NCBI GenBank assembly: GCA_008632985.1
Contig: QPGO01000077.1
Span: forward strand, 62,001 to 126,000
Direction of reading: 5' to 3'
From: Psammoneis japonica
Taxonomy: Eukaryota
DNA length: 64,000 nucleotides
Shown here: piece after piece, positions 1-59,439 of the stretch
How positions within the stretch are numbered: position 1 is the stretch's first letter
Layout of the letters: each line of letters starts with the position of its first letter
Notes under the pieces: generated by a model
Databases searched by the model: none
What the model was told of the DNA's origin: nothing
What the model saw: only the letters and a program-made list of their open reading frames with translations
Position numbers and translations under genes: made by a program

Positions 1-149
1 GTGCATCATTTGTGTGGTGTGCCCAGGTGTTTTCTTCAGACACCAAAGGGAGCACACCCAGCCTGATTTTTTGGCATTCTCAGAAACGGTCAAAACAAAC
101 CCCTCTTTACTTTGGCTTCACAAAACTGGGCATGTGTGAAACAATTTTG

Positions 150-36995: not shown

Positions 36996-37060
36996 ACATT
37001 TAGTCATACAAGAGAGTCTTAATTCTTGTCTAAGCAGCTACCCTTTCTAACGTGATGTTG

Positions 37061-37726: not shown

Positions 37727-38905
37727 TATGGCCTTGCTTCCTATGATCCCTGACTTGCCTCTCCTCTCGATTCGAGAGGAGAACTCTCGATTCACTCCTG
37801 CTGTCGCTGTTGGCTGTTGGTCTTACCGAATATGATAGGCCCTAACTAATGGCAAATGGCAGTGATGATGGCACCATCACCAACGGTGATGATGATTGGT
37901 TCCTCCTTTATCCCGCGTGAAGAAAATGGTCTGCTTGCCGCCCGATTGTGCCGTATATGGCACAAACGAGGCTCGCGTACGACAATTAATACCGAAATCG
38001 ACCGTAGGCAATCTTTCCGTTCAACGCTTTTTGATCGCTGAAACTCCCTCCGACAATTCACCTCCGTAGATGGGATAATGCGGTTGGCAATCGAAGTTGT
38101 TTCCAAAACCTACATCGTTGAAGCTCGAAGATACAGCTAGAGGTATTTAAGGGATGCTTGAATGCATGAAACAGCAATGGATCGCGCCGCTTTTTGTGCT
38201 GTCGAGGGATGGTTCGGAGAGCAAAGAAAAAAGCAGTGTGTTGCATCATGCCGGTGTGAGGCATGAGGCAGACGTTACACATTAAATTGACCTTCTAAAT
38301 TAGAAGCACAAACAAGTGATACAATGAGTGCATCGTTTGATTTTGCTTCTTCAATCGAGTCAGATTGGGAGCACTGTTACGAGGAAAAGGAGGATGGCGC
38401 CTTTTCAGAAGAAGATCTTCGCTTGTTTGTCGACGCCATGCAGGACAAGCACTCATCAGAGGCAACACAGAACGCATTGGCAGCACTGTCCCATCAACTG
38501 TGAGTGCGATTCCTCAGTCAATGTCTGTTTTAAGTGGTGAAATTGCTTCACCCGCAGTGGGGAAATCCAGCAGCGCGGATCCAACCACGCCGCTTGAAGC
38601 TGCCGTTCATGCGAACTTTCTCCCTCCACTCAAAGGTGAGGCAGCCGAGTTGAGGAGGTGTGGAACCCGGGCTGATTTGGACCGCCATGTGCGCGAGGAT
38701 CAAATTTTAGAGCTTTGATCTTTGCTCGCCACCAATCATTTTTTTTAAAAAAGTCGCACATTTGAATGAGGGGTTCGCAAAGAATTAGAGTGAAATGACA
38801 TTTCATGTGAGTGTTTGCAGACAACATTAAAATGGCAATTTAATGTCATTGCAAGTGCACAAATGTGCATTGTGTGAAAAGACGTGGGCCTCCCATTTTC
38901 AAATT

Positions 38906-41530
38906 TGATGATTTTTGTGTGTCGGTTCAATCATTTTTGTCTTGAGTGTGGTCGTTTCGAGTGAAATGGAATAAAACGCGTGAAGCCATGGGAAAAAATC
39001 TAAAAACAGGAACAAGAAGCCCAGACAAAAGTGCAATGGTTCCATGAGTCCATTGCATGCAGCCATTTTGCTTCATTCTAAGGCCCAAGACATGGGCAAA
39101 AAGTGCCCTGTCGGGCAGATTGAAGATGCGGTGCTTTGCAGCACCTGCCGTGCCGGCAAACACCGGCACAAAGACTGCTGGCCATCACGATGCCTTGGAT
39201 CATTGTGGCACGCAAGGCTGGGTCAGCGGGATTTTTGGATGATGATTCGGATCTGTTGGAGGCATGGAAATAAAAGCAACATCATTGGAAAGCTCTTGTT
39301 CTGCAGATGATGCCATTGCCATTTGTTGTGTCACAATCTCAAGTTCTTCTAAAGCAACACCTGCTTGAGCGAAATGCACTGGGATTTTGGCACGCAGCTG
39401 CAGGGTTGGCAGGGATGTCTGGATTGTAAATCTGATTGTTGTGGGCATGGAAATGAGACTGACATCATTGGAAAGCTCTCATTCTGTGGATGATGTCATT
39501 GTCATTCATTGTGTCATAATTTCAAGTGCTTTCAAAGCATGCCCACTTGAGCAAAACGCAATGGGATTTTGGCGCACAGCTGCGGGGTCGGCAGGACATC
39601 TGGACAATGATTTGGATCTGCAGGGGGCACGGAAACAAAAGTGACATCATTGGAAAGCTCTCATTCTGTGGATGATGTTGTTGTCATTCATTGTGTCACA
39701 ACTTCAAGTTCTTCTAAAGCAACACCCACTTGAGCAAAATGCATGGGATTTTGGCGCGCAACTGATGATTTTTGTGTGTCGGTTCAATCATTTTTGTCTT
39801 GAGTGTGGTGGTTTCGAGTGAAATGGAATAAAACGCGTGAAACCATGGAAAAAATCTAAAAATGGGAACAAGAAGCCCAGACAAAAGTGCAGTGGTTCCA
39901 TTGGTCTGTTGCACGCAGCCACCCCACTTTGTTCCAAGGCCCAAGACATGGGCAAAAAGTGCCCTGTCAGGCAGATTGAAGATGCAGTGCTTTGCAGCAC
40001 CCACCACACTGACTGACACCGGCACAAAGACTCGCTGGCCATCACGATGCCTTGGATTGTTGTGGCGTGCAAATGCGGGGTCGGCAGGACATCTGGATGA
40101 TGACTCGGATCTGTTGGGGGCATGGAAATAAAAGCAACATCACCAGAAAGCTCTCACTCTGTAGATGAAGTTATTGTCATTCATTGTGTCATAATTTCAA
40201 GCACTCACAAAGCAATGCCCACTTGAAAAAAATGCAACAGGACTTTGGAGCACAGCTGCGGGGTCAGCAGGACATCTGGATGATGATTTGGATCTGTTGG
40301 GGGTGTGGAAATAAAAGCAACATCATTAAAAAGCTCTTGTTCCGCAGATGATGTCATTGTCATTTATTGTGTCATAACTTCAAGCACTTTTAAAGCAATG
40401 CCCACTTGAGCAAAATGCAGCAGGATTTGGCGCGCAACTGTGGGGTCGTTGGACATCTGGATGATGATTCGGATCTGTTGGGGGCATGGAAATAAAACTG
40501 ACATCATTGGAAAGCTCTTGTTTTGCAGATGTTGTTGTTGTCATGTATGGTGTCATAATTTCAAGCACCCACAAAGCAACACCCACTTGAGCAAAACGCA
40601 GTGGGACTTTGGCGTGCAACTGTGGGGTCGGTGGGATGTCTGGATGATGATTCAGATCTGTTGGAGGCATGGAAATAAAAGCAACATCATTAGAAAGCTC
40701 TCGTTCTGTAGATGATGTTATTGTCATTTGTTGTGTCATAATTTCAAGCACTTGCAAAGCAACGCCCACTTGAGCAAAATGCAGCGGGATTTTGGCGTGC
40801 AACTGCGGGGTCGGCAGGACATCTGGATGATGATTCGGATCTGTTGGGGGCATGGAAATAAAAGCAACATCACCAGAAAGCTCTTGTTCCGTAGATGATG
40901 TTGTTGCCATCATTGTGTCATGACTTCAAGCACTTTTAAAGCAATGCCCACTTGAGCAAAATGCAACAGGATTTTGGTGCGCAACTGCGGGGTCATTGGA
41001 CATCTGGATGATGATTCGGATCTGTCAGGGGCATGGAAATAAAACTGACATCATCAGAAAGCTCTTGTTCTGTAGATGATGTCATTGTCATTTGTTGTGT
41101 CATAATTTCAAGTGCTCATAAAGCAACACCCACTTGAGCAAAACGCAACAGGATTTTGGCGCGCAGCTGTGGGGTCGGCAGGACATCTGGATGATGATTC
41201 AGATCTGTTGGGGGTGTGGAAATAAAAGCAACATCATTGGCAAGCTCTCGTTCTGTAGATGATGTTGTTGTCATTTATTGTGTCATAATTTCAAGTGCTT
41301 GTAAAGCAACGCCCACTTGAGCAAAACGCAGCAGGGCTTTGGCGCGCAACTGCGGGGTCGGCAGGACATCTGGATGATGATTCGGATCTGTTGGGGGCAT
41401 GGAAATGAAAGTGACATCATTAGAAAGTTCTCGTTCTGTAGATGATGTTGTCATTTATTGTCTCATAATTTCAAGCACTTCAAAAGCAATGCCCACTTGA
41501 ACAAAACGCAACAAGATTTTGGCGCGCAAC
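38906..41530. repeat. Satellite: ~11 units of ~182 bp, plus a duplicated ~330-bp leader (38906 and 39763)
   Basis: The core GGACATCTGGATGATGATTCGGATCTGTTGGGGGCATGGAAATAAAAGCAACATCA recurs at about 39230, 39415, 39595, 40090, 40270, 40450, 40635, 40820, 41000, 41180 and 41365. Confidence 0.95.
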
Positions 41531-41752
41531 TGCTGGAACGTTGTGACATCTTTGTGCCAATTTGGATTTGCTCTAGAGGGCCACAGATGTAAAAGTTGCA
41601 CCACAAGACAGCTCTGGTTCTGTGCATGATGTTCAACAAATTGCAGTTTATGGCAAGCGCATCTGAGACCAGCTGAAGTGCATCCACATCTGTGAGGACG
41701 TCGCAACTTTCTCGAATTTCACTCCTTTTCTGTCCTCCAAAGCTCAACATTG

Positions 41753-42077
41753 AGCACAACATCAACCAGTCCCAGATCCTCCCCTTCATGGTGCCACATG
41801 TCAGCTTTACAAGGCTCCCATTTTAATCGTCTTGTTCCTGAATGAAACCGGGCTTGAAGCATTGCACAAGATGCCCCACTCGTTTCGATCCTCTGGAAAA
41901 ATGTGTCTTCATTTAAAAGCACAACATTGACCAATCCCAAATCCTCCCCTTCACAATGCCACATGTCAGCTTTACAAGGCTCCCATTTTAATCATCTCAT
42001 TCCTGAATGAAACCGGGCTTAAAGCATTGCACAAGACACCCCACTCATTTCCATCCTGAGGAAAATGTGTCTTCATG
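41753..42077. repeat. Two tandem copies of a ~165-bp unit
   Basis: AGCACAACAT...GCCACATGTCAGCTTTACAAGGCTCCCATTTTAATC...AAAATGTGTCTTCAT at ~41753 and ~41918. Confidence 0.9.
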
Positions 42078-42168
42078 ATTTCTGCGACTGTTTTCCCCAG
42101 AAAAATTCCAAAAAATGGAAAACACTCTCAAGACAATTCATTTCATTCATTCGTGGATGACAAGGAGA

Positions 42169-42470
42169 CTGTGACTGGTGCAACCCAGTCACCGCAGAAA
42201 CCAAAGCATTGCAACTGATGCAAAGCATTCATTTCACTCATTTGTGTGCAATCAATGGGATTAGACTGCGGCTGGTGCAACCCAGTCTCTGCAGAATGTG
42301 GGATGATCCTGTGACTGGTGGGCAACCCAGTCACCACAGAATGCAGAAAGGATCCTGTGACTGGCACAATCCAGTCACCGCAGAAGACTCTGTGACTGGT
42401 GCAATCCAGTCACCACAAAGGATGAAAGAGATCTGCAGCTCTGTGGCTGGTGCAACCCAGCCTCCACAGA
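42169..42470. repeat. Six ~30-bp palindromic repeats with variable spacers
   Basis: CTGTGACTGGTGCAACCCAGTCACCGCAGAA-like copies at about 42169, 42266, 42309, 42355, 42390 and 42441. The stem is GTGACTGG/CCAGTCAC. Confidence 0.85.
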
Positions 42471-43099
42471 GGCACTTTTTGTGTGGCTGAGACTGCCAAC
42501 CTGTGTCATCAGATCACAGGCAAGCCTCTGTGCCCCTTTGCGCAAAGGTGTGTTCACAAAAAGTGAGAGTTTTGGGGGAGCAAAAGTGATGAGTGCCCTG
42601 TTCTTCTGTGCTTTTGGCAAAGATTCTGACTCAACTTTGGGAACATGCTGGTAAAGATTCTGACTCAACTTTGGGTGACGTGTGTGGAACAAACAGCGCG
42701 CAGAAGCTGCACACACAACTGGTGCCTGAGTGTGTGAGTGCGCATGTGCGAACAACAACGGACGGTTTTTTTTTTGAACTGCCAGCCAGACAACCTGCAG
42801 CATGAGCTGCGTGCATGCAGTGCATGTGCGCAGCAGTGCGTGTGGCTGGATGTGAGGAACTGCTGGATGGCTGATGCATTCTTCGAGATGGACTCGAGTT
42901 TCTTTTCTGTGCCCAGTCCTGGCCAAATGCACGAGTCATTTTTCCAAACGTTTTGTCATTTTGCCAAAACCAAAGAGAAAAATGCACTTCTCTTTCACGT
43001 TTTTTTAGAAAAAAAGAGTGTTCAACAGGACAGAGAGAGAGAGAGAGAGAGAACCCACCAGATTCACGAGATGACAGGCAGGTTCACTGTTGTGGGGCG

Positions 43100-46000
43100 G
43101 CCACTGTTTCCATGATGATCTTCACAGGAAACAGTTGTGGGCACAGGCGGTGCTTTGCTGTGCTGGCAGAGCACAGAGCTGATTCCAACCAACACAGCAA
43201 GCACCAGGGAGCAGGAAAACCAGGTCAGCCACCAGCGCCATTTTAAAAGCAGTTTTGCATTTGAGTGCCAAACAAAGTCAACATGCAAGCCCAGGGCTGC
43301 AGCTCAATGCACCACTTGAGCTCACAAACATGGTTTGGCATTGCCACAAAATCCAAACTGCAACACTTCAAAAACTCATGCACCCTGCTTTTTGGGCTCC
43401 AACGTTGCAGGTGGCTGAACACAAAGAGTGCCGGGTGCACGCACTGCTGCATGAAAAATGATGCTGTCTCAAGAGAAGGATGCCAGGAAGTGCAGCCATT
43501 TCTTCTGCATCAATCTTGCATTTTCTCTTGATGTGTGCAAGAACAAAACAATGAGTCGCTGCCTCAGGTGCTTCTTCTTCTTGAGTTGTCCTCCTCCTCA
43601 GGAGATGCTGCAGCATTTCTCCAGCTTTGGGCAGCACCGGCAAGTGTTCCAGCAGCAGCTGCTCCTTCTCTTGATGTGGGCTGCAGTCATCAACATGCCA
43701 TTCAACAAGGGTGGTGCTGTGGAAATCCTGCTGCTTGCTTTGCATTGACAAGAGCCTGGGGCTGCAACACTCTGCACTTGCGGTGTGCAGCTGGGAGGGT
43801 GGCAGTGGCGGCAGTGCACAAGGAAGTGCCTGCAGCAATGGTCTTTCACCTGCAGCCATCACTGGCATTGCTGCTGGTGGGGCAGTTGCAATCCCAGTGC
43901 TCAGCATTTGTTCAACTCTCCTTGCACCCACAAACACAACTGGCACACCAGGCCTGAGATGGCAAACTGTGACAAAGCTGCAGTCACAGAGAACAGAGAA
44001 CAGAGAACTCAATGGCAAAACCACCTGCTGATGTGAAGAGTGTGAGAGCAGAGCTGTTGAGGTGCAGATCATGAAATGAGAGATGGTCAGCAGTGGCATG
44101 CATTGGTGCATTGATGCATGTTCTTTGTGCATGGCAAGGCAATTGCTGCTCTTGTTTTGAGGCACAAGTTCTTGTTTTAAAGGTGCAGTGGTCCTTTTGT
44201 TCAAAATGCCTTGGGGGAATCACATCTGAACAGTTTTGCTTCTTGGCATTGAACAGGTGCACTGAGCAGCTGCAGCCACTCAGCTCTGCACATCAGCTGA
44301 GGGACATCACTTCCCCCGCTGCTTTTCATCTGTGTGCAGCCGGCAGAGGCTCTGCACAGTGGGGTGAAAGTCATCACAATCACTGGCTGGTTTTCACTGT
44401 GCATCTGCCTTCAGACTCCAGCTTGTCACAGTTTCTGTTGGCTCCTCTTTGACCCAGGATGACCACATGACACTGGCCATGGTTTTTCTTGCAATGAGGT
44501 TGCTTGCTTTCCTTTGCACATTGTTGAAGGTTTGATTGTGTGTTTTTTCTTTTGCCCAAGAAGTCACTCTGGTCTTTTGGGGGAAAAATGGAATCTTCTT
44601 GGTTGCTCCAAATGATCACATGCGCAACATCATGACCACAGAAACAAGCCACCTGTGGAAGGATGAAAGCCACTTCATGTGCAACACTCAGCAAAATTGG
44701 TGCAGGCAAAACAATCAAAATGGGAAAGAATGTCTGTGGTTTCTTCTGAGGCCAGTTTGTGGCATTGCTGTGGCAGCAACATTCAGTCCATGACCCATTT
44801 CCCGTGTGCTTTTGCCTTGCTTGAAAGCCTCATTTGCCAGTTCTTCCTGAAGAGTGTCTTCACTCACAGCACTTTTCTTTTGCTCAGCTTAGAATTGGAG
44901 GAGCTCCAGATGCTTTTGCTTGGTCCACCCAAACTCCTGGCATGTCAAAATCTCAGGATCAGTCAATTGTTTGGTTGTGCATGACTTTCCACAGAGTTCA
45001 AACCATTGAGGAACTTTGCCAAGAGCAAGTTCAAAGCAGTCACAAAGACCACAGCTCCCTGTTTGTAAACTGTGTCACAACATCATCAGCAAAAAATGCC
45101 CCCCAGCTTTTCCCATCTTCTCCATGAGGACTCCTTGGAGGCTTCACCTTCCAACAAATGTTTCTTGCTCCCAGAGTCAGGCCGGTGTTGAAATTGTTTT
45201 AAAAAAAACAGAGCCTCCTCCCCACAAATGTTGTGTGGAAAATGTGAGCATTCTTTCACTCTCCAGGAGTGGTGCAATTTCAACATTCCCCAAGGTTGAA
45301 CAGCCCCCTCTGGGCACCAGACAGGCAGAAAATCCATGATCCAAAGTGCAGCCAACAACCCCAGATTGAAGATGTTGTCATGTCCAGACAAGGGCAGTTC
45401 AAGACCTTGACCAAGGCACTTGTCCAACAAAAAGCTGTGGGGCTCATCATCTCCCATTTTGTAAATGCCAGATCCCTCAAAATGACATGTCTGCCTTTTG
45501 CTGCATGGTCTTGCCTCAAAAAAGCTCAGACAGGCAGCTGTGTGACTTTCCCTTTCCCTTGTCTCTGTGTGCAGCAAAAAGAACACATTCCTGGTGCACC
45601 CCTGACACTCTTGTCAAGAAGCATCTTCTTCTGAAAATGCAGCCACCTGGCTCCTTGATGACCAAGTCTGCATGCTGGTGAGCCCCAGGTTGAAGAAGAG
45701 ATGTGCTCTGTTGTTGCTCATGTTCTCCAAGTGCTGCTGCAAAATTGGGCTGCCCTGACCTGGTGGCCTTTCATTGAGTTGAGCAGTTGTTGCACTGATC
45801 TCTGTGATGTTGCCAAAGGTGCTCTCATTTCCTTGCACTCTGGAGTTTAGAGCATCTGCTTTCAATGTGAGAAGGCCAGAGGCACACAGCACAGGGCTGA
45901 AACACCCACACATGGTCAGACACACAGTCAGTCCAGCCACTTGGTGGGCATGTCAGCTGTTTGTTCTTCTCACTCAGGTTTGGCGCAGTCATTTCAGCCA

Positions 46001-48418
46001 TCTGCTGGAATTGTGTGATGCATGCCAAAAAAATCCAGTGCCACTGCACAAAAGTTGTTCTTCACCCTCTCACTCAGAATTTTGAAAACAAGAATGAGAA
46101 AAAAATGGGTGGGTTTCCACATGTTTCTAGCACAAAAAAGAGTCAATTTTTGCAACAGCATGCTCCAGTCACAGTGCCCAGCAACAAGTGCTCACAGTGC
46201 AGTTGGATGCAAAGGTCATGGAGTCTGGCCACATGGCGAGCACCAAGCACCTTTGACCAAAGGTCCCAACTGCAAGCCAGCTCATGAAACGCAAGGGCAT
46301 CTTGTCCAGAAGGTGGAAAGCTGTCCCTTTCTGCAAAAAGTGCAGCAATGCATGCAGGCATCTGACAACAACCCAAACTGTGTTTGTTGGGATGTGGCTC
46401 ACAAACCAAACTGCCAGGTGCAGAGCCTGCCACCAACAGTGCCAATGTGACAATGCAAATGAAAACAAGTTCACCATCAAGAACTCCTGCTTTAAGAGCA
46501 CACAAAAGCACAGTGGGTCCATGTGGCCCAAATGGATGGATCACAGGTCCTTCACTGCCCACGCACAGAGTTCTGGCAGATTTGTGTGGGATGTGCTCAT
46601 CAGCAGGCCACAACAAAACTCAAGTTCGGGCAACAGTTTCATGGGTTGACTTGTCATGATGGCTGTGTCCACAGTCTGGTGGTGCAAAAGCTCTCCCCAG
46701 CATTTGGGTGTGCAGAGGTCTGTGCAGATGCAGACAATCTTGCATCCTCATGGCCACTCCCAAAAAGCATGGTCATGGTGCACACACATGATGACACATT
46801 GCACTGAAAAACCAACTCCAGAAAGTTTGGCTGGAGGGTCAAATGCTGACACAGGCAAGATTTCCCACAATCAAAAGTCAACACAACCTTGACCCTGATG
46901 GCCACACTCTGGCTGCCTTGCCATCCTGCAATCTGTTGACAATGTGGTGCTGGGACACATCAAATTGCTTGTGGTTCCTGCCTGGTGCACTGGTTTGCAA
47001 TGATGGCATCATTGTGGGTATCTTGATGCCAAAACACAGTTGCACTGGGGTCAGGCTTGATGGTGCACAGGCCACACAACTTGCTGTTGTCTCCATCCCT
47101 CTTGTCAGTGTGACAGGCACAGTTGTTGTCAATGTCAGTCTCTGTGCAATGTTGTGTGTCAGTTGTGACATTTGGGTGCAAGGTGGTCCCAAATTTTTCA
47201 TTGTGATCTGGGTGGGCAGGGTCAGCAAAAGGGCACATGCTCTGGAGCATGAGTGGAGCCAGCATCTCACCCAAAATTCTGGTGGCATTTGAAGCTTCAG
47301 CCATGGCATTGATGAAGATGGGGTCATGCAAATGTGGGTGCTTGACTTCAACTTTGGCAACCAAGTGGCATGGAGAGTGCTGGGTCACATGATGCAGCTT
47401 GCCAATCAAGGTGTCTTTTGCCAGTGCTGAAGCACCTTGATCTTGCCATTGCAGATTGCCGCTGTTTTGTTGCAATGATGAACTGGGGTCACACCATGCC
47501 AAACACACAGTTCCTTGGCAACACTTGTCAGCAAACCAATGAGATGGTGTTGGCCATGGCCTTCCTCCCTGCTGCAGAAAGAAACAGGCTCTTGGTGCTC
47601 AGCCTGTGGCCAAACATGAATCTCAGCAAGACTTGAAGATGTGGCAAATGTCAAGTTTGCCATGGTTGACAAAAGAAGAACACTTTGCTTTGCTAAAAAG
47701 ATGCCAATTGTTGCCAAACTTTTCTGCAAAAATCCATTGAAAATGAGCTTGCTGGGTGGGGAAGTGGGAAGCAGAGAGTGCAGCCACACACACACCAGCT
47801 CTTCTCAGGCACAAATGGCCGCAGAGGTGGGGAAGCCAAAATCTGCATCACAAAGAGCCTTGTCATGGGCAATGCCATTGACAGCACCCATGCAACAGAG
47901 CCACAGCTGACATCAACAGCAGAGCAATTGTGGCACACCAGCAGTGATGGCACTGTCTTTCTGTCATCATCAGCACCGGCATCAGCAGGGTTAAAAAGCC
48001 AGCAAGAGTTGTCCAAGGCAGCCACCTGAGCAGAAGTCACTGGGAAGGAGGTGCAGGAAAAATTGGGTGCTTTCTTGCCCTGTCCACACTTTCAACAAGC
48101 AAGTTGTGAGGACAATGGCTTGGCACTGAGTGTGGGGTTTGTTCAACAGCAAAAACAGCAGTGCCCACACAAGGGATGATTGCAAGGGATTGTCGCACCC
48201 TTTTTTGACCTTGTTGAGCAATGCAGATGGAGAGGCAAAGGAAGGAATCACAGCAGCTAACTCAGCATGCCTTTTCTAAGAGTGACCAGGTTTTTTGCCA
48301 TGAGCACTGGTGCAGCTTTGTTTCCTGTTGCTCTGAAGGGACAAAAGAACGATGTTTCACCCGCCTGGTGTCACCTGAACAGGGCTGCAAAAAGAAGGTG
48401 AAAATCATGGGAGAAGAT
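43100..48418 (-). pseudogene. Heavily decayed coding sequence of unknown class (probable transposon-associated gene)
   Basis: TA- and CG-depleted, with fragmentary frames. It is interrupted at its right end by the Copia insertion. Strand is inferred from weak motif remnants. Confidence 0.3.
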
Positions 48419-48423
48419 GTGTC

Positions 48424-48607
48424 TGAAAGAATGTGAGCATTCTGCTGGCAGGTTTAGACAAAATTGTCAGGAGGAGAGTCAATCAGAGAGAGGGAGGCAA
48501 CTGCTTCATCCAATTGACGCGGTCTTTGATCTGACTTGGTTCCAGTTGGTTTGGATCCGTCTGTCTGTCAGTTTGTCCATCAGCACAGGAACTTGATTTT
48601 TCTTTCA
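48424..48607 (-). repeat. 3' LTR of the Copia element
   Basis: About 79% identical to 57601-57786 by manual alignment. TG...CA ends. Confidence 0.88.
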
Positions 48608-51600
48608 CTCCCTCGCAACTGAGCGAGCTGCCGAATCGAAAAATTTGCGACATCGCAAAATTTGCGACAAAAAATCCGCGTGCGCACGCATTTCTGGTCC
48701 ACCTGTGACATGGTGAGCTGATGTGCTGATGTGCCGATGTGCCTCACAATGTCAATTGCATCCCCGTTGTCTTCCAAGGCAATGCTCACTGCATCATGCC
48801 CCATTTGGCATCACGTTCATTGAGCAAAGCTTCACATGGTGCTTTTTAAATTGGAAAATGGGCAGATGTTGTTGTCATCAAAGTGGTCGCTGTCTTTCAT
48901 GTGCAAACTTGACTGTTGACTGTGGCGTTTTTTTTGAAAAAGTGTCTGTCAGCATTTGGAAGGGATGGGTTTTGTAAAACGCAAATTTGAATCTCTGTGT
49001 GGGTGGCATGTGAGTGACATTTTGTGATGATCCTCACAAAAGTCGAGTCTCATCATGCCGATGGCTTCAAACAAACAAGGCGGCGGCGGTGATGCCGGAA
49101 GCATCAGCAAATCAGAAAAGGTGAAGCAAGTTGTGGACACCCAACATGCTCAAGGGGCACGACAAATGCTTGAGATGCTTGATCAAGTCAAAAACATTTC
49201 TAAAGTGGTGAAAGAGTTGAAGAAGGATGCTGAAGTGGCCAAGATGCAAGGGTTTGTTGGCAAGCTTGGAGTTCTTGTGGAGGCAGCAGAGCAGATGCAA
49301 TGCAAGGGACGAAGACAATTTTCACAACTTTCACAAATGAAGCATGTTGTGGTGTCATGTGACTCACTGAAGGCGGAAGAACGACAAGAGAATCTGCCTC
49401 TGGCCCCTTTGCTGCAGCTGAAGATGTTCTCTTGGGCCAGCAAGAAAGCACCCAGCAAAGATGACGGCATCATCAAAGCGACCGTCACAGGAAAAGGAGG
49501 CAGCTCGTCAAACAGTGTGGGAAGAGCTGCACAATGATGAAATTGAAGCAGACGGTCATTCATCAAGTGAGTTGCCCTTGTGCGGACTTTGCAAGCTGCA
49601 TGAGGGAAGTTTGCAACATGAGCCACACAACGCAATGATTCAATGACCTGCTTTGTGTGCTGCAGCATGACTTTGTAAGCTGCACAAAGTGATGCATTGT
49701 GCACTGCATGACAACAATCAATCAATTGCTTTAAAAAAGTCATTGTTGTCAGCACAGTGAATTCTGACGTGCGACGTCCAGACAATTGAAGAACCCATGA
49801 AGCTGAGGAACGAACGAACGTGAGGCCCTGCTCAAAACAACACAGGAAAAAGACCACATGAGGATGCATGCCACATTTTGCTCTGACAAGCACATCCATG
49901 AAAAGAGGAGACAGGTGCGACAAAGTCCAAAAATGGGCAAAAACTTCTGTGATTTTGTTGTCATCTCTGTCTTGAATCTCACAACTTCAACAGCTGATGC
50001 TGCTTTGCCGCCAAACTTTTCCCACCAACAATGCTGACACATGATGTGCTTCATTGCACTCGGAAAAGTGCACACATGAGAAAAGAGAAGTGAGAGAGAG
50101 AAAGCCCGAAAATGGACAAATGCTCTGCCCTTCTGTGATTTTTTGCTGATGTTCAGGCTCTTTGAAAACTGTCACATTTCAATTTGTTCATTCTTGACAG
50201 ATTGAAGAGCGCAGAATCTGTCATTCAGACAATGAAAACTTTCATGCAAATGTCGTTTTTGTGCATGTGCTTTGGTGTTTGTGTGCAGCTGGAGCATGTC
50301 AAAAGGGGAGACAAGGGGTGACTCAAGGGCGCGGAGCATTCGTTGTGGCAATCTGCAATCTGCCACTTTTGGAAAAGTCTGGGAACAGCTGGCAAATGAG
50401 GTTGCTTTTGTCTCTGAACATTTGAGTGACTGCATGGGTTGCTCACTGGCTGCATCGGCACCCAGGCAATTTCTTCTTGCAAAGATGTTCATGTGGCTTG
50501 CCCCCACCTCTGAACATCAAGACAGCCTGCTGGAGCCAAGGGAGGTTGCTCCCTGGTGAGGCATTGATTGACACTTCCAAGGAAGGGGGTGTCTTTCAAT
50601 GCTGCAGGCCCAAATCTCAGCCGCAGCAGGGCTGTGCTGCCCTTGAAAGCTGGTGCGTGTGGGTTGACTGATCTTGGCATCATGGCTGCCACCACCACTG
50701 CCATTTTGACTGCTGCCATTGCAACTGCTGCCACTGAAACTGCTGTCATTTCAACCACTGCTGTTGCAACTGCTGCCATTTTCCACTGGCGCCATTGCGG
50801 CTGCTGCCATTTGGACTGCATTGCGACTGCTGCCACTGCAGCCACTGCAGCCACTGCCATTGCAACTGCCACTGTGGCAACCGCCATTGTGGAAACTGTG
50901 ATTGTTGCAACTGTCATCATTGTGACTGCTGGCGCCATTTGGACTTCTGTTGTTGTGACCACTGTTGTTGCAGGGCTGGCTGCAAGAAGCTGTGGCTGTG
51001 CCACTGTTTGGACTGCTGTTGTTGAAGCTTGAGTGTGCTTTTGCATTTTGCCTTGATTGGCAATTCTCTCTGCATCTTGCTTGTTCTTGAAACATCCTGT
51101 TTTGCCTGACTTTGCCCTTCCTCTGTCTTGGTCCCCTCACACAAATGCTCTTTTGCAGCTGCCTTGAGATTTTCCAAGGCCTGCTGAGTTTGTTTTTCCT
51201 CATCTCTCTTTTTTGCTTGTCAATCAATTCTTGCTCTAAAGCCTCTTGCCTTTCCCTTGCTTTGGCCACTTGCTGCTCTGCCATGACTGCTTTCTGATGC
51301 TTGCTTTCTTGTCTGGAGCATGCTTCCATCACAATGGCCAAGACTGGCTGGGCATTTTGCTTTCATGCCAGCTCTTCTTTGGCATCAGCACACTTGGCCC
51401 CAAATGGAATTCCTTGTCCTTTGATGTGGGCCACTCTTCTGCCAGAGCCCTTTCTGCTGCCACCACTGCTGGTTCTGCCCATGGTCATTGATGCTGTTTT
51501 GTGTGTTCCTTCCAACACTTTAACACCCTGGTTGCTTTGGCGTGTTGACTCTTGCTTCACTTGAGTCAAGTCAATCAAAATGCTCTGCCCACAACAGGTG

Positions 51601-54600
51601 AAAAATTGCCAGCAAGGAAGACCAGGACACCAATTTAGCTTGCAGTTTTTCAAGCTGGTCCTTTGGCAAGGGCTTGGTGAAGATGTCCATGATCTGCTCC
51701 TCAGCAGAAATGTGTTCAATCGTGATGGTCTCAGCAACAACATGGGACCAAAAATGGTGAAGCCGGACAGACAAACACTTGGCATGTGGGTGCATGCAGT
51801 GATTTGCAGCAATCTTGATGCAGCTCTTGTTGTCCTCAAAAGTGCAACATGCTGCTTTCAACAGCGCCAATGATGTGGGAAATCCTTCACACTTCAATTC
51901 GTCCACAAGGTTTTGAATGACAATGACCTCAAGCAAGGCTGAAGACAGAGCAATGCATTCTGCCTTGGCAGCACTGAGAGCAACAAGGTTTGCATCTTTG
52001 AGGTCCAGACAATGGGACACCAAGCAAGCATGATGACATGTCCAGTGCAAGAGTGAACAGAGGATGGATCATGGGAGGAATGATCCTGCAAAAAGCCGGC
52101 CCAATTGGCATCAACAAAACATTCAAGGCCACACGATGGATCTGGCTTGAAGGTGATTCCTTGATGTCTCATCCTGTGTGGGCACCAACAAATTTGCTTA
52201 ACAGCCTCTTCATGTTCTTGGTTTGGATCATTGCAGAACTGCATGCATTGTTGCACTGCCACAGCGCACCCCACGATGGTGCAACAGCTCCACTTGCCAA
52301 GACACAGCTTCCCTTCTTCCTTCTTCCGGGTCTTTGTCAAGGAGTTTGGTGTGACAGGCTGGTGTGTCATGTGTCTTGACATGATTTGAATCAGGATCAA
52401 GTCCTGCCATGTCAAGGACATGGTCAATGATGTGTGACTGGGAGAGAGTGATTGAACCCATCATCATGTCTCTTTCAAACCATGTCCCAAGGTGGTCTTG
52501 TGATTCTCCATCATCAGCAAGGTTGAAATCTTGCTTCAGGGAAGCAACCTCGTGAGAGATTGATGATTTGGAAGGTGAGACAAGGACACTGTCATTGATG
52601 TTAAGGATCATGATGACACATGGCTTGGTGAACACACAAGTGTCTGTTTTGGATTGCTCACATCTCCTGGACAGCAGCCCTTTGTGGAGGAATTGGAGCC
52701 AGGCATGTCCTGCATCTTTGAGCCTGCACAAGTTCTTGATGAGCTTGCACACATTCTGGAACCTGTTGATGAAATCAGGCAAATCTGGAGAGTGTGGAAG
52801 CTGGACAGCATTTTTGGAGGTTTCATGCATGTGTCAGTCTGAACTGGAGCCTGGGGATGGGCCAACACAAAGTCAATGGATTCCACATGGCTGCCACCCC
52901 TGAATTGTGGTGTTGACAATCATGAGTTGGGCCATGCTCCAAGATGCAAAAGGTGAGTGCATGGACCAGCAGTCAAGCCCTTCAATGGACTTGTGTTTGC
53001 TGACAGAGAGTCTGGCCTTGTGCTTGATTGTCTCACCCATGGGGGTGTGCGTTCACTTCATCAACCACACCATGGGTGTGGGCATGTGCCCTCATGGAAC
53101 AGCCTTGATGGGCACCACCTTCCAATGCTTCCTTGTGATGTGATCCCACAGTTCTTTGTGCATGGCCTTGACAAATGACTTGCAGTCTGGCTGCTTGAGA
53201 GTGCTTCTTCCAATGTCACAGCATTGGGATCCTGGGAGGCAGCTGTCAACTCTGTGGTGAAGTGAGTCAACATGGCAAATGGATGAGCCTCTGACCAGCA
53301 TTCAAGGTCAGGTTGGAACAGTGGCTGATCCAGAGAGTGGTCATGCAAGGGTGCAAAAAAGTGGCCACAAAGGCAGCAGCCACTTTGAATGCTTTGACAG
53401 CCATGTTTCCTTGTCAAATTGTCAGGCTTGGCATGGTGACCCAAACATGTCATGGGTGGTGCAGCGGGCAGTTGCCATGTCATTCAGCGGGGGGGTGCAT
53501 GGTCTGCAGACTCCATCGACATGGTGGCAGCTGGGTTCCACAGTGTCTTGATTTGTTTGGTTGGTGTTGGCAGTCACATCCTCAGGTCATTCATCCTCCC
53601 AGTTGTCAACAAACACAGGTGTTGGATCAGCAGTGGTGGAAAAAGGATTGACAGTGGCAGCAGTGTTGTGGGTCAAGCTGCCAGGTGAGTCTGTCATGCT
53701 CTTCTGTTTTCATTTTTTGCAGCACCCTCACTTTGCAGTTTTGCCTTTGCTTGCCACAGAGATGTGAACTTCACATCCCTGCAGCAAGTGGCAAATTTGT
53801 CATCATGTGTGCAGTGAAACTGAGGGGATGTGTTGCCATTGTGCACATTGAGGACAAGAGGTGCATTTGACACACATGACTTAGAGAATGTGTCAGGAAG
53901 ATGCCAACTCACAACCAGTCACTCCACTTGTTGTGGGAGTGTTGATCTTGCAATCCTGTGCTTCTTCCTGACCTCTGGTGTGCATGTCATGGACAGAGCA
54001 TTGTGAAGGTTGGTGCAGTGTTTCAGTGCCATGGGCCACAATGAAAGGTGCACTGCTTTTGGCCATTGGTGAGCAGCGTGCAGCAGGGCCATTCATGCTC
54101 CCACAGCAATGTCTTTGACTCAGTTCTCAGCTCAACCATTTTGATGATGAGCATTCATGCCACAGAAGCTCAAGGCTTGATTTGTGGTCCTGACTCTACC
54201 TTGAACTTCTTGATGTCAAACAAGCCATCATCCACATGAAGGTGCAAGACCCGCACTTTGTGTGCTCCTGCAATGCACTTGAATGCAAGTTTGGCCTCAC
54301 CAGTGGCAGTGGCATCCATGGTGATCATCAAGAGATGGATGTGGTTGAAGTTGGAAAAATGGTCCAAAAATGTCATGTCACCATTGCAGCAAGTGGTGGT
54401 CAGATTGCCTTGGTTGGCAGGCACTGGTCTGGGTGCAGGACTTGCCAGTTGGTCAACACCCATGACCTGTCTGGTTGCGGTTGCAGGTTTGATTTTGTTC
54501 TGGTTTTTCTTGCCCTTGGTTGCCTTTGGCTTGTGCTGGGCCTTTCTGCAGGTGCATCCTGGGCAAACCAGTGGTTTGATGTTGGCCAGTTCTTTTGGCA

Positions 54601-56254
54601 TGAGTCCTGCCCATGTCACCAGCTTGAGCTTGGCAAAACTGAGGTGACTCATGGTCTCATGGATCAAAGCCAGCCTTTGTTTCTTGCATTGTGCAGCAAT
54701 GACATCCAGATCTGATGGTGCCAAGGAATCAATCAGGGTGTCACTCTCTGTTCAAATGGCACACTGCATTGTCAGTCAGCAACTGGGTCAAAATCAGTCT
54801 CTTTGTGTGGGACCTCATTCAGGGCTTCTGGAAGTGACTTCCTCAGTTTTCCTGCAGGCTTGACATGCTCCCACAGCTCTTCTGGAGGCAACAATGGCTC
54901 CCTTGGTTCCCTTGGTGATGCCAGCAGCTCCCTTGGTTCTTGTGCTTGCTGGTTCATGGTGGCATTGCACTCATTGTTCAAAGAGTCATGTGCTGTGTTT
55001 GGTGGTGGAGAGTCTCCCATGCTGGTGAAACAATGTTCGACATCATGTTTGTGAGTGTGGTTGCAAAAGGACTTGAATCTGGGTCAAGTGCTGAAATGGA
55101 AGAGGTTGTTGGAAGTGGTGGGGTGGCAAGCTTGCATCATTTTTCACTGTTGGATCTGTGGCAATGGAGTTGGCATGTGTTGTTGTCATGGCCAGAGCAT
55201 TTGACCATGTGTCCTTGAGCCTTCATTGCTTTGATGAGCAGCTGCAGAGGGATGAGGTTGTGCGGCAAAGCAAGTGATCACTTGGCTCCTTTGGTGAGTG
55301 TGGTGGAGGTGCACCCATTGTCCAATTGCAATGGCAGTTGTTGCAGTGTGCCTGGTCCATGTGCCTTCACCGGCTTGCCAGCGACACCCTTTGCACCCGC
55401 TGATCCACAGGCAGAAAAGCCTTCTGCAAGCCTGACATCATTGAGTGTAAAGTGGTGGCCTTGGCATCAATGCAGAATTTGACACTGTCTGTGTTGATGA
55501 CAAAGCAGAGTGGTTGTTTGTTGATGTTGTCTGGAGCATCTTTTTTGCCAGGGTCATTGGAAGATGAGTCACCCAACTGGGATGAAAATGTGGAAGCAAC
55601 ATTGTCAACTGTGTTTTCAATGCACCATTGCTGTCCAACCATGTCTGAAGAGGCTTTGCCTTTTATCAAGGAATGATTTGCACCAGAGAGGGCACACTTG
55701 GTGGACACAGACACAGGCTCTAAAAGGCTGGGAAGGCCAGCAGGCACCCTGCTGCTCTCTTTGCCAGCTGGCCAATGAAAGCGTGACAGTGGCAGCATCA
55801 ATGGGGTTGCATGACATGATGGTGCACTTGGCATTGGATTGCAGTTGAGGTGGTGCCCAGTGCATTGGAATGTTGACTGATGACAAAGGCCATGTGGACT
55901 CAACACAGGAGACAGAAAATGGGCAGTGATCCACAGGGAACTGTTTCTCCCTTTGAGGCCTGCAGCCAGAGGAGTCAGAATCACAGTGGTGCTGGGAGAG
56001 GCAGTGGAGGCAGGTGTGGGATTGATGCAATGAGAGCAGCCATGGCTGAGCAACACACAAGTCCAACAGAAATGAAACCATGGCTGAACTTCAACATCAC
56101 TCTGCTGTGGTGCAACCTTCATTTGTCACCTTGCAGAGCGGCAAGAGCATTGGTGATCTGGTCCTGCATCTCAGTGTGACCACTGAGCATGGCACAAGTG
56201 TTGGCCAGGAGGGTGGTGGCATTGTTGGCGACATTTGCAATGCCACTGCCAGAA

Positions 56255-56273
56255 GGAGGGGGGGGGGGGGGGG

Positions 56274-56309
<36 letters not shown>

Positions 56310-56320
56310 GGGGGGGGAGG
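56255..56320. repeat. Poly-G tract (poly-Pro in the gag frame)
   Basis: About 65 nt of almost pure G. Confidence 0.9.
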
Positions 56321-57600
56321 AGCAGCAGCAGCAGCAGTTTCCTGCTTGCCAACATTGGTGCAGGGTTCAGATGGGTTTGTCTGCTTGTTCTTGATCCAGT
56401 TGAGGTGTGTGTGGCATTTGGAAGTGGGAAGAAGTTCTTGGAAGAAGGAGTGGCATGCTCATGCTTGGAGGCAACAAGCACAGCCACCATGTCCTCTTGG
56501 TGGGTGTTGGCAGAGGTCTTCTTGAATTTGCCATTCTTGGCAACAATCTTGAAGCACTTGAGAGCTGCCAAGTTCATGAAATCTTGGCTGTTGGCAGCTG
56601 CACTGGCCTCAATGTTTTTAGTTTGGGTGGCAACCTGCTGGAGCCACAAAAGAGGCTGCTGGATGTGTCCACAGACTGTGACAGTGTGCTGGATGTGCTT
56701 AGAATGGTGCAACAATGTGTGATGCTGTGTGGCAGCCAGAGCAAAGAGATGGGTCAATTTTGTGTTGATTGTGGGAATGTTGAAATGACACTTGCTGGGG
56801 TCCATGCACAGGATGTTGTCCAGGGCTGCAGAGCTCATTTGAACAGTGGAGGTGATGGCAAAGGCAGCCAGTTGTTCCAACAGAGATGCACCATCCTCAT
56901 GAGTGGGAGCACCATTGTGTCATCTAAAAATGGCACTGTGTGCTTCACTTGGTCAGTGATGCCAGTGTTTTGAGTGGCTCCTTTGACTTGGGCAGTTGTG
57001 GCTTAATTGCGCGCATCAAAAATGCCACAGCCGTTGACAACAGCTGTGCTCTGGGGTGCAGAGGCATTCCAACATGCTTCTCTGGCATGGAATTTAAGAG
57101 ATGTGAGGAATGCTGGAAACATCTCAGTGTCGCCATCCCAAGCCGGCATGATTGGAGCCGATGCCTGTTTGAAGGAGGTTTTGCCCATGCAAGAGCTCAA
57201 GTTAAGTGGTGGCTTGACTTGAGCAGATCAAAAATGGGTGTGTGTGTGCTGCAGCAGCTGCACCTCTGGCGGCAGTGCCAGCATTGAGGTTGTCAATTGC
57301 AGCGGCAAGAACAACGAGAGTGGCGGCAAGTTCGGTGTTGGCAGCCATTGCTGTGACATTCACAGTGGGCAGCTCTGAGGTTGAGAATGTCAACAGCAGC
57401 AATTTAAAACAGCATTGGGAGCACTGCCAGAATTTTTATGAAGAGAGCACATCCCAAATGTCGGCGGGCAATGAATGGGGAGGAGTGTCATGGCGGCAGC
57501 TGAAAAAGGGTTGCACTGGACAGCGCAAAAGAACGAGTGACAAAAAGAACAAGAGCATTGCAAAAAGAAGGTTGCTGCAATGCTTGCTTGGGTTTAAACC

Positions 57601-57786
57601 TGAAAAAACATGATTGTTCCACCAGCGGGTTTTCAGAGAAAATTGTGAGAAGGAAAGTCAATGGGAGAGAGGGGTGCAGCCGCTTTGCTCGATTGACGTG
57701 GTCTTTGATCTGACTGGGTTCAAGTTGGTTTGGATCCATCTGTCTGTGGGTTTGTCCATCAGAGCGGGAGCTTGATTCTTCTTTCA
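57601..57786 (-). repeat. 5' LTR of the Copia element
   Basis: Direct repeat of 48424-48607, followed by TSD GTGTC. Confidence 0.88.
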
Positions 57787-58501
57787 GTGTCACAAATGAA
57801 GGTGTGTGTTGATGGGGTGTGGGACTGCTTCTTCTGCCAATCATTGAAAATTTCGAAAATTTCGAGTGTTGCAGTTCAAATTTTAATGCATCATACATGC
57901 ATTGAGGGCATGTCACAAATTCATGATCATGTGCATGGCGAAGGGGAATTTACATCTAAAGGTCGACATTTATTATTTCGGCACGTTGTATAAGGACATT
58001 CTATTTTATTTACTCTAGAATGGCAAGAATAAATAAAGAAATAGACACATGTTTAGTACATTATCATTTTTATTTACAGTAGCCCTATAGCAGTACTCTC
58101 TAGAGTAGAGAGTATGTTGTAGTAGTAAGTATCGAACATTCAGTACTTACCATCCGGTAAGTAGTCCTTAAATACAGTAGTCCATAATCGCCAATTGACA
58201 TTCCGTAGTGTATTATACGTAGGTATGGCGAACCAATTTTTAATATATTTATCCAAACATTAACAGTTATCATTTTTTAGTGTATTACCGCATTTCTTAC
58301 AGCATATTGCATTTAAATATATGTGTTGACGTACATGAAATGTATCTTACGCTCACAATCATCATTTTTTGACGTCGCAGAAAAATTGAAAAGAAAATTC
58401 TTCTCCTCGTTTACAGTGCACTAAAAGGGAGATCTTGTGTTTTCTTTTTAAATACGTTCCCACGTTCTTTTCATCAAACCCATCCTTAATTCAGAAACAC
58501 C

Positions 58502-59125
58502 ATGGCAATCCATTTCGCTCTCTATGGCTTGTTGTTGCTAGTCCTATCGTCGTCGGCGGCGATGGCTAAGGAACATCATGTCGGAGGAGAAAGAATCCGT
58601 GACCTCGACGCCGCCGAAGTCGGACGTCACAATCGTCGTCGTGCAAGCATGATGAAGAGCAAGAAGGGCAAGAAAAGCAAGAACTATTGTGTCCAACGAG
58701 AAGTTCAAGCTGACGCTACCGGCGCTCAAGAGGTCCCTGCTGTTTCGACGGATACGTGCGCCCACCTCAGTTTGGAATTCGACGTCGGTTTGACGCAAGT
58801 CGAATACGAGTTAAGTATCGAGGACGGCAAAGCAGTAACGCAAGTTCATTTGCATTGTGCGGAAGCTGGCTCGAATGGTCCCGTTGTTGCCTTTCTCTTC
58901 AATGTGGCTCCCGTCCCTGGTCCGGGAGGAGTCGACATCGATGGTGATGCAGCTTTCGGGACACTTACATCTGCCGATATTATTCCCAACGTTTGTGGAT
59001 TGAATGGACTTAGCGTAAACAACATTGCATCCCTTTTTGCTGCCATTCGTGAAGATCTGATCTACGTAAATGTGCACACGGAAGCAAATCCACCAGGTGA
59101 AGTCCGTGGTCAAATATTTGTCTAA
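58502..59125 (+). CDS. Secreted CHRD-domain protein
   Basis: Signal peptide, GAQEVPAVST, HLHCAEAGSNGPVVAFL and YVNVHTEANPPGEVRGQI. Confidence 0.9.
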   Translation: MAIHFALYGLLLLVLSSSAAMAKEHHVGGERIRDLDAAEVGRHNRRRASMMKSKKGKKSKNYCVQREVQADATGAQEVPAVSTDTCAHLSLEFDVGLTQVEYELSIEDGKAVTQVHLHCAEAGSNGPVVAFLFNVAPVPGPGGVDIDGDAAFGTLTSADIIPNVCGLNGLSVNNIASLFAAIREDLIYVNVHTEANPPGEVRGQIFV

Positions 59126-59439
59126 GATTTGCAGAAGAAAACAGCGAAGCTTTTCCTGTTGTGTATGCGGTTTTTTTCGTTTGTTGAGACACAGGCATAG
59201 CGAAACTGGACGTATGATAGACGCGATTCAATTAATTTGTTCCTGGCCGTACTGTACTGCCCCTTGTATGGTTGGTCGGGAGCATGTGTAAGCTGTGCTT
59301 TAGATACATGCATTACTTCAAATCACTCCTGTGCACCAAATCACTGCTAGTCTTCTCTTCCAACAATGGGGCAAGCACTGCTTAACTGTTTGCACCATCG
59401 TAGTCAACATCCTTTTACTTTCTACATAGACGACAGTGA

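Follow-up and report, generated by a model that had tools for sequence, protein, structure and literature searches.

What has removed the dinucleotide TpA from long blocks of a diatom nuclear genome? The question is raised by a 64-kb stretch of Psammoneis japonica DNA (positions 62,001 to 126,000 of contig QPGO01000077.1, assembly GCA_008632985.1), referred to here as the window and numbered from its first letter, in which TpA is nearly missing from the remnants of transposons, from a satellite array and from a few further blocks. A preliminary description of this sequence had proposed that TpA is converted to TpG or CpA in repeats, on both strands, and had named a DNA adenine deaminase and polymerase-eta-like repair as candidate agents. 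We find strong support for the conversion in base composition, in the codons of a degenerate Copia element and in differences between repeat copies, and we argue that deamination of adenine in DNA is its probable, though less certain, cause.

When the window was divided into 1-kb bins, the ratio of observed to expected TpA (o/e) was 0.00-0.07 at 1-2000, 29-33 kb, 42-57 kb and 60-64 kb, and 0.46-0.88 in gene regions, so that repeats and genes are clearly not similar in this respect. A two-state segmentation on TpA density, the edges of which were checked with 250-bp counts, gave six low-TpA blocks (Table 1). Together these hold 119 TpA in 32,982 bp, compared with 1,163 in the remaining 31,018 bp; the ordinary rate predicts about 1,237 for the blocks, and the Poisson probability is too small to be told numerically from zero. 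By both methods the edges of the blocks are less than 250 bp wide, as is illustrated by a spared island of 1.6 kb (57884-59517) that sits between two depleted blocks. The four repeat blocks in which the preliminary description had found TpA nearly absent were recovered by the segmentation, except that 33814-35060 and 40129-42020 are only partly depleted (o/e about 0.3-0.5), and one of the six low-TpA blocks, 9687-11845, was missing from its list. The same block is the exception to its statement that TpA is normal in genes, as the gene-like open reading frames (ORFs) found there have a TpA o/e of 0.13 and a CpG o/e of 0.87. Its stress on TpA also has to be corrected, in that CpG is co-depleted in most blocks.

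It can be seen from the pooled counts for the 26.5 kb of most depleted DNA, with expectations taken from base composition, that only TA and CG have been lost and only TG and CA gained. TA was observed 70 times where 1,739 were expected (o/e 0.04) and CG 298 times where 1,574 were expected (o/e 0.19); TG was counted 3,064 times (1,704 expected) and CA 2,967 times (1,607 expected). The remaining 12 dinucleotides are the same as in unique DNA (for example AA, 1.19 versus 1.17). Relative to the o/e values of unique DNA, the deficit of TA plus CG is about 2,232 and the surplus of TG plus CA about 2,256 (hand arithmetic on the pooled counts), and G+C is 0.488 in the blocks versus 0.472 in unique DNA. 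AA, AT, GA and CA are untouched by the loss, TA being the only depleted dinucleotide among those that contain A or T. The depletion does not vary with reading frame or strand and extends equally to non-coding satellite DNA, and summed over the low-TpA blocks TG (3,210) and CA (3,088) are close to balance.

The direction of change can be read from a degenerate Copia (Ty1) pol region in the largest block. We compared it with its homologues at 386 codons that had at least 8 aligned homologues and at least 60% agreement, 242 of which are kept in the remnant. None of the 15 conserved tyrosines survives: seven have become Cys (TGY), six His (CAY), one Asn and one Leu (Fisher p 2e-7 versus other residues), and the Cys and His replacements are interleaved along the element. 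Arginine is kept at 2 of 26 positions, the others having changed to 4 Cys, 2 Trp, 3 TGA stops, 4 His, 4 Gln, 4 Lys and 3 further residues, with 17 of the losses being of the type CGN to TGN or CAN; the controls Trp (13 of 14), Ser (11 of 12) and His (18 of 21) are mostly retained. Alignment to the homologue P0121 confirmed the motif changes that had been noticed by eye, namely NLYGLK to NLCRLK, TGYVI to TGHVI and AEYIAL to AECIAL. Among the 144 changed codons, 94 have a unique single-base path, 39 need at least two steps and 11 are ambiguous. The 94 single-base changes are made up of 19 A to G (15 after T), 13 T to C (11 before A), 13 C to T (10 before G), 29 G to A (21 after C) and 20 transversions; transversions away from A or T number just four of the 94 (one each of A to C, A to T, T to G and T to A). 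Hence 26 of the 32 A to G or T to C changes lie in TpA (binomial p 4e-11 versus 0.25), the excess that a polarised spectrum was expected to reveal, and 31 of the 42 C to T or G to A changes lie in CpG (binomial p 4e-11). Both the proposed direction, from TpA to TpG or CpA, and the proposed action on both strands, with seven Tyr to Cys and six Tyr to His replacements, are borne out.

A second element carries the same mark. The integrase-bearing block at 27715-33813 contains an ORF of 563 residues with, as had been noted, a single tyrosine: its composition is 0.2% Tyr, 3.6% Cys and 6.6% His, compared with 2.5-3.6%, 1.5-2.6% and 2.0-3.7%, respectively, in five homologues, and 0 of 4 conserved Tyr positions are kept. 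Relatives of the Copia element, by comparison, are not TA-poor. We examined 79 distinct environmental Copia loci (from the best 80 of 426 confirmed metagenome matches, a choice that favours intact elements), and all had a TA o/e of 0.43-0.92, including loci with a CG o/e of 0.07-0.3, where TA was 0.63-0.85. As the choice favours intact elements, the lack of TA-poor loci among the 79 is no sign that the process is rare elsewhere. When the window was compared by blastn with these 79 loci there was one match, of 174 bp at 73% identity, and no outgroup at the DNA level; a putative long terminal repeat pair (48327-48622 and 57510-57799) aligned too poorly, with many transversions, for use as an internal clock.

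Copies of the same repeat also differ at these dinucleotides. In 11 aligned monomers of the 183-bp satellite that occupies 39.2-41.5 kb, pyrimidine-purine sites show the states TA, TG and CA at five positions, CG, TG and CA at three, and TG and CA at three, which confirms the three-state sites reported previously. No site holds both TA and CG, as would be expected if the sites had changed independently and in a single step, starting from either TA or CG. Pyrimidine-purine columns have about twice the density of transitions (117 events in 88 columns) found in others (57 in 95), and the latter indicate that a background of other transitions also exists in the satellite. In a 156-bp tandem repeat within a 935-aa ORF, a variable Tyr codon has TA in two copies, CA in two and TG in three, and thus encodes Tyr, His or Cys. 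Among the 40 differences listed, out of 448, between the window and contigs from two sequencing runs (X1 and X2, described below), 27 are between TA or CG on one side and TG or CA on the other, and the counted copy differences comprise 352 transitions and 88 transversions. At 34.1-34.35 kb most other copies have TA where the window copy has CA or TG, these being six C to T and three G to A differences. We conclude that the copies were mutated in place.

A potential explanation that would not need to invoke a new process is deamination of 5-methylcytosine, the signature of which is certainly present (the CG o/e of 0.19, the 2 of 26 arginines and the 31 of 42 changes in CpG given above). According to the part of the literature source available to us, diatom transposons are CpG-methylated, and DNMT4, a relative of RID, occurs in many diatoms, where its function is given as unknown (PMC9998398). 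Ordinary deamination of methylated cytosine best explains the CpG loss, and such decay in transposons would account for the CG to TG or CA half of what is seen here; it is unable to remove TpA, which is the half that remains. TpA is gone where CpG is near normal: in 9687-11845 and 27751-29000 TA is 0.13 and CG 0.81, and across the blocks TA is already 0.13 where CG is 0.87, with CG falling to 0.07-0.17 elsewhere. The same state, with TA alone affected, was found in 3 of 151 database Copia relatives. P0211 (919 aa) has 15 conserved Tyr positions, of which eight are Cys, four His and one kept, with Arg kept at 20 of 23; P0241 (611 aa) has 11, of which four are Cys and three His, with Arg kept at 14 of 16; and in P0186 (174 aa) three of three have become Cys. 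In intact control Copia proteins the share of Tyr positions retained ranges from 9 of 10 to 16 of 17. From their residues, P0211, P0241 and P0186 appear to be ORFs of TA-only edited elements in other public assemblies. As these blocks and proteins have lost TpA with their CpG or Arg intact, TpA loss is separate from CpG decay and faster; it precedes CpG loss and is separable from it. Likewise, as CpG-poor environmental Copia loci keep TpA, CpG decay alone does not remove it. We therefore reject 5-methylcytosine deamination as the whole cause, in agreement with what had been claimed from the sequence at the outset.

The TA-poor sequence is present in sequencing reads. From X1, a DNA run, contigs were built from exact 31-letter words at a depth of 59-64, and the run contains 0.91 of the words sampled from 25001-35000; genes and TA-poor blocks alike are matched with 0-5 differences per contig. 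These contigs show no difference from the window in 5.6 kb of gene DNA (25001-27316 and 34828-38110) and 12 differences in 8.2 kb of TA-poor DNA (27581-33558 and 42829-45000), where the depth is as for genes. A single contig at single-copy depth spans 42829-45000, and the integrase block is covered by contigs at single-copy word depth with two to three differences each. Eight of the 12 differences were listed, six being exchanges of CpG with TpG or CpA and one an exchange of TA with TG; differences between X1 and the window in transposon DNA may be allelic or recent changes. The occurrence of the TA-poor sequence in reads at the depth of single-copy DNA excludes an artefact of polishing. Of the reads from two platforms that the preliminary description had called for, the contigs of one DNA run, X1, were compared, and they keep the TA-poor sequence. 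The contigs of the second run, X2, skip introns and are hence RNA-like; none covers 27.7-33.7 kb or 38.3-45 kb, and we do not use this as evidence of silence.

Is a process of this kind known? The preliminary description knew of none in diatoms, a statement that now needs qualifying: in 2026 Mettrop et al. reported hypermutation at TpA only in a chlorarachniophyte, Bigelowiella natans (bioRxiv 10.64898/2026.01.13.699255; what we say of it draws on the accessible part of that preprint). In mutation-accumulation lines, 231 of 302 nuclear mutations fell in two integrated viral regions, and 230 of the 231 were A to G or T to C, all at TpA. The rate, about 6e-7 per site per generation and in some lines only, is about 1000 times background. 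Of the two viral regions the larger is present once and is silent. In the long term TpA becomes depleted while CpA and TpG increase, and reverse transcriptase and DDE domains are over-represented among coding sequences poor in TpA. The agent suggested there, as a hypothesis, is a DNA adenine deaminase of the ADAT2 type, with reference to DNA editing by amphioxus ADAT2; the accessible text mentions neither diatoms nor CpG. The present case is like that of B. natans in its A to G or T to C changes at TpA, its two products and its delimited regions with ordinary genes spared: we found transitions (32 A to G or T to C), TpA context in 26 of them, both products and delimited blocks. It is unlike that case in its host, a stramenopile rather than a rhizarian, in its targets, where transposon remnants, a satellite and tandem repeats take the place of giant-virus and virophage inserts, and in its near saturation (TA o/e 0.03-0.06 versus 0.45 in the B. 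natans viral region). It also has an overlay of CpG decay that is absent from the discussion in the accessible preprint text, and it is read from sequence alone, whereas the B. natans events arose de novo. As the signature is identical, we regard the diatom case as the same kind of hypermutation. A search of the full-text literature found nothing on TpA loss in diatom repeats.

Other known systems fit less well. Fungal repeat-induced point mutation (RIP) creates TpA, stop codons and AT-rich DNA. Like RIP, the process described here is local and sharply bounded, works by transitions in a dinucleotide context and inactivates repeated or mobile DNA where it stands, but RIP changes C:G to T:A, mostly CpA to TpA (PMC2621366, seen in part), which is the opposite direction. 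Here TpA is destroyed (o/e 0.04), CpA and TpG are doubled, G+C is unchanged (0.49 versus 0.47) and stop codons are not created, with ORFs of 563 aa and 919 aa (P0211) still open. RIP was accordingly rejected, and the earlier argument that RIP creates rather than removes TpA was sound. The WA hotspots of polymerase eta in somatic hypermutation are A:T-targeted with a preference for a 5' T or A. In our blocks AA is not depleted (1.19 versus 1.17), there is no mixed spectrum, as nearly all changes are transitions, and the scale is saturating; polymerase-eta WA mutagenesis, one of the two agents first suggested, is therefore ruled out. TadA and ADAT2-ADAT3 convert adenine to inosine after U or T, the edited A34 of tRNA always following U33, so that a 5'-T preference is built into the family, and laboratory-evolved TadA acts on DNA. 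As with these enzymes and the base editors derived from TadA, the adenine changed here follows T, although we know of no natural TadA/ADAT enzyme with saturating activity on TpA in duplex chromosomal DNA. Hypermutation of mobile elements by deaminases of the APOBEC3/ADAR type has been fixed in genomes (PMC4866542, seen in part). Such editing is strand-asymmetric, acts on cDNA or RNA and has other contexts, whereas the strands and products are balanced here and a satellite and a tandem repeat, which are not retrotransposed, are affected; it too was rejected.

We propose the following explanation. TpA would be changed in place to TpG or CpA, by A to G on either strand and almost to saturation, in transposon remnants, the satellite array and a few other blocks of the diatom nuclear genome, and CpG decay would add to this, the joint result being DNA rich in TG and CA steps at unchanged G+C. 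Tyr codons would be destroyed, giving Cys or His, and TAA and TAG stops removed; as no stops are created, dead elements keep long open frames. In chemical terms, a deaminase guided to DNA that is silenced, foreign or repeated would convert the adenine that follows T to inosine, which is then read as G. The existence of an in-place TpA to TpG or CpA process acting on these blocks is strongly supported. We put the full explanation at a probability of about 0.6, because the adenine-deaminase chemistry and the trigger are what we infer. That repeats as such are the target, as first suggested, is less certain: the change keeps to sharply bounded transposon and satellite blocks (edges of less than 250 bp), but a gene-like block is also affected and the target in B. 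natans is a silent viral insert present in one copy.

Some sequence context beyond TpA is apparent. The 70 surviving TpA lie mostly in TTAA (22), CTAA/TTAG (22) and GTAA/TTAC (13), and ATA/TAT accounts for 4 of the 70, compared with 485 of the 998 TpA of unique DNA (p 4e-14). Either the flanks modulate attack, with R-T-A-Y sites the most readily hit, or TpA steps that arise anew do so preferentially in those contexts. In the satellite it is ATAA sites that are best kept, at odds with the survivor contexts elsewhere. Modelling of the flanks left the -2 and +1 effects inseparable, tetranucleotide gains were confounded by overlapping sites, and nine polarised events divided 5:2 with two symmetric. 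The TG:CA imbalance per 500 bp had a chi2/df of about 2 in blocks and ordinary DNA alike, and without excess over-dispersion there is no sign of long single-strand tracts.

Could the pattern have arisen in another way? Repeats that are natively TA-poor, by ancestral composition or selection against TpA, might be suspected because unique DNA is itself mildly TpA-poor (o/e 0.59), but conserved tyrosines, including those of reverse transcriptase and RNase H motifs, have become Cys or His with 0 of 15 kept, none of the 79 related loci has a TA o/e below 0.43, copies of one family differ exactly at TA, TG and CA sites, and the depletion is equal across frames, strands and non-coding satellite. Tyr loss, relatives that are not TA-poor and the copy differences together refute native composition, and we give it almost no weight. 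Only marginally better placed is an artefact of sequencing, base calling or polishing at modified bases. The platforms of the assembly and of X1 are unrecorded, and X1 may be the assembly's own source sample; yet X1, at a depth of about 60, agrees over TA-poor and gene DNA alike (12 and 0 differences, as above), a miscall would be expected to put TG on the reads of one strand and CA on those of the other, and the pattern recurs at the protein level in independent database entries. Miscalling at modified bases is unlikely, as a symmetric miscall at a palindromic step would presumably give no clean consensus. Editing of RNA or cDNA during retrotransposition by ADAR- or APOBEC-like enzymes, with later integration of the edited copies, is just as improbable. 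Both recognisable elements are retroelement-like (Copia pol and the integrase-domain element), and ADARs prefer a 5' U; ADARs, however, also accept a 5' A, and AA is untouched. Near saturation would take many rounds, and the equal strands, with Cys and His interleaved along the element, and the three-state sites of the satellite and the intragenic tandem repeat, sequences that are not retrotransposed, argue against editing of single-stranded cDNA or RNA.

Two further readings concern the chemistry in DNA. The more serious, though still improbable, is that thymine is the target, a TET/JBP-like or thymine-hydroxylase-like dioxygenase oxidising the T of TpA in silenced DNA to 5-hydroxymethyluracil or 5-formyluracil, the latter mispairing with G and giving T to C. 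TpA is self-complementary, so that T to C before A equals A to G after T on the opposite strand; 5-formyluracil promotes T to C, the 5-hydroxymethyluracil of dinoflagellates is enriched at TpA, and a thymine-dioxygenase-like domain is encoded at 25315-27005 (PDB 5c3o/5c3p, E 1e-15). That gene is, however, of a free-base salvage type conserved across diatoms, no TET/JBP domain was found in the window, and 5-formyluracil also yields transversions, which here are 20 of 94 and not concentrated at T. Less probable again is a process without a dedicated editor, in which repair in methylated, late-replicating chromatin is error-prone or biased, through polymerase-eta-like WA synthesis or removal of the correct T by a T:G glycosylase. 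The CpG decay in the blocks implies methylation, and 352 transitions against 88 transversions among copy differences would suit such a bias. Against this, the WA pattern is missing (AA again 1.19 versus 1.17), TpA is lost where CpG is near normal, environmental Copia loci with a CG o/e of 0.07-0.3 keep TA at 0.63-0.85, and TpG is doubled rather than reverted to CpG, as a hyperactive T:G glycosylase would do; a depletion of 93-97% with edges of less than 250 bp is also hard to obtain from a diffuse bias.

Adenine deamination is thus the explanation we prefer, and several points weigh against it. About a quarter of the satellite transitions lie outside pyrimidine-purine steps. As TpA is self-complementary, the sequence cannot tell A from its paired T as the target. 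The Y-T-A-R context of the survivors is that of the tRNA anticodon loop, the opposite of what tRNA-like recognition would spare. The read support comes from one run, with the reservations on platform and sample given above, and all composition and block comparisons were made within the 64-kb window rather than across the genome. Finally, no responsible enzyme was found, the window's one deaminase gene being salvage-like and diatom-wide, with no link to the TpA pattern.

That gene lies beside the integrase block and encodes a zinc deaminase fused to a dioxygenase (Table 1). It is covered by X2 contigs, in which its intron is skipped, and the fusion is conserved across diatoms at 55-73% identity, the best named relatives being from Attheya, Chaetoceros, Cyclostephanos and Seminavis (57-62%). 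For a full-length homologue of its product, thymine dioxygenase, TropC and guanine or guanosine deaminases are all stronger matches than TadA. Judged by these homologies it is probably a nucleobase salvage enzyme, perhaps for 5-methylcytosine or thymine, and it was set aside as a candidate mutator; we allow only a slight chance that it is involved in the hypermutation and treat its adjacency to the block as coincidence. A 43-bp direct repeat (95% identical; 27022-27064 and 35062-35104), which may be a duplicated target or promoter piece, brackets an 8-kb insert that separates this gene from a serine carboxypeptidase gene. A 20-bp inverted repeat (27293-27312 and 27598-27617, 19 of 20 complementary) surrounds about 290 bp of very AT-rich, TpA-normal DNA; X1 contigs break near it (loose ends at 27286 and 27339), and these breaks point to a small repeated element.

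Few of the block ORFs are recognisable. A Pfam scan covered 150 of the 162 ORFs of at least 90 aa (the others being seven in the satellite at 39.2-40.9 kb and five at 62.8-64.0 kb), and five of the 150 had a match at E up to 0.01, three of them transposon-related, namely RVT_2, a weak Integrase_H2C2 and a RING finger. The largest block consists of unrecognisable repeats and the Copia remnant, and no domain was recognised by Pfam in 59518-64000, where the five ORFs at 62.8-64.0 kb lay outside the scan. Beside the Copia remnant is a degenerate 15-bp tandem repeat (about 11 copies, 50698-50869) that reads as Gln/Trp/Leu-rich low-complexity sequence, and the same block contains a run of about 60 G (93% matches, 56258-56317). 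Within the spared island, 58001-58250 is extremely TA-rich (41 TpA in 250 bp) and abuts TA-free DNA. The ORFs at 9982-14543, which belong to no known family, are TA-poor with normal CpG in their 5' 2 kb; those of the 9687-11845 block gave no match in Pfam, PHROGs or viral contigs, and ORF 10847-11971 none in PDB.

Table 1. Features of the 64-kb window, in window coordinates. o/e, observed/expected; a strand of '.' means that none is assigned.
Feature	Position	Strand	Details
Low-TpA block, depleted of TA and CG	1..2628	.	TA o/e 0.06, CG 0.07; continues past window start; segmentation
Copia-like polyprotein fragment	1684-2117	+	tblastn with Copia homologues; inside block 1-2628
Low-TpA block, 'TA-only', in gene-like ORFs	9687..11845	+	TA o/e 0.13, CG 0.87; segmentation
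Three overlapping long ORFs (309, 374, 935 aa)	9982-14543	+	low Tyr, 0.3-1.6%; first two at 9982-10911 and 10847-11971
156-bp tandem repeat, 7 copies (52-aa repeats)	13097..14183	+	in 935-aa ORF; one Tyr codon site variable
Zinc deaminase (HAE...PCxxC; guanine-deaminase/TadA-like) fused to 2-oxoglutarate-Fe(II) dioxygenase	25315-27005	-	intron 26712-26794
Low-TpA block with degenerate integrase-bearing element	27715..33813	+	TA o/e 0.06, CG 0.51
TA-poor start of integrase block	27751-29000		near-normal CpG; first 1.3 kb of 27715-33813
Integrase_H2C2 (weak)	30290-30745	+	in block; Pfam
rve-like 563-aa ORF	30755-32446	+	in block; related to rve-integrase proteins
RING finger	32556-33032	+	in block; Pfam
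Partly depleted stretch	33814..35060	.	very high summed read depth; TA o/e about 0.3-0.5
Satellite region	38379..42020	.	low-TpA block at 38379-40128; TA o/e 0.13-0.28; 183-bp monomers at 39203-41522
Largest low-TpA block	42021..57883	.	42 TpA in 15,863 bp; TA o/e 0.04, CG 0.17
Degenerate Copia (Ty1) pol: integrase, reverse transcriptase, RNase H	51616..54730	-	RVT_2 Pfam; tblastn with 151 homologues
RVT_2	52231-52833	-	Pfam
Spared single-copy island with 207-aa ORF	57884..59517	.	TA o/e 0.77, CG 1.10
Low-TpA block	59518..64000	.	10 TpA in 4,483 bp; TA o/e 0.03, CG 0.16; continues past window end

Striking and useful as it is, the finding has had a precedent since 2026, rare targeted editing of this kind having been reported, in the accessible part of the B. 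natans preprint, in just one other alga. For genome analysis there are practical consequences. Because editing strips elements of Tyr and of two of the three stop codons, they escape homology-based transposon annotation (five Pfam matches in 150 ORFs) and yield long spurious ORFs; as the process is G+C-neutral, it goes unnoticed by RIP indices and by screens based on GC content. With TpA lost first and CpG later, there is also a two-clock means of dating repeats. The phenomenon would be extended from one rhizarian alga to diatoms, which are major primary producers, and its known targets would come to include transposons, satellites and tandem repeats besides viral inserts. If it is driven by an enzyme, this would be the first known natural editor that turns A:T into G:C strictly at TpA in chromosomal DNA, which would be relevant both to genome-defence biology and to base-editing technology. 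We suggest tentatively, at a little under even odds, that diatoms and chlorarachniophytes share an enzyme-driven defence that edits duplex chromosomal DNA at TpA on both strands, to saturation, and is guided to transposons, satellites and viruses. If so, this would imply a natural, context-specific DNA adenine deaminase together with a means of guidance, by chromatin, small RNA or homology, possibly throughout the stramenopile-alveolate-rhizarian (SAR) group.

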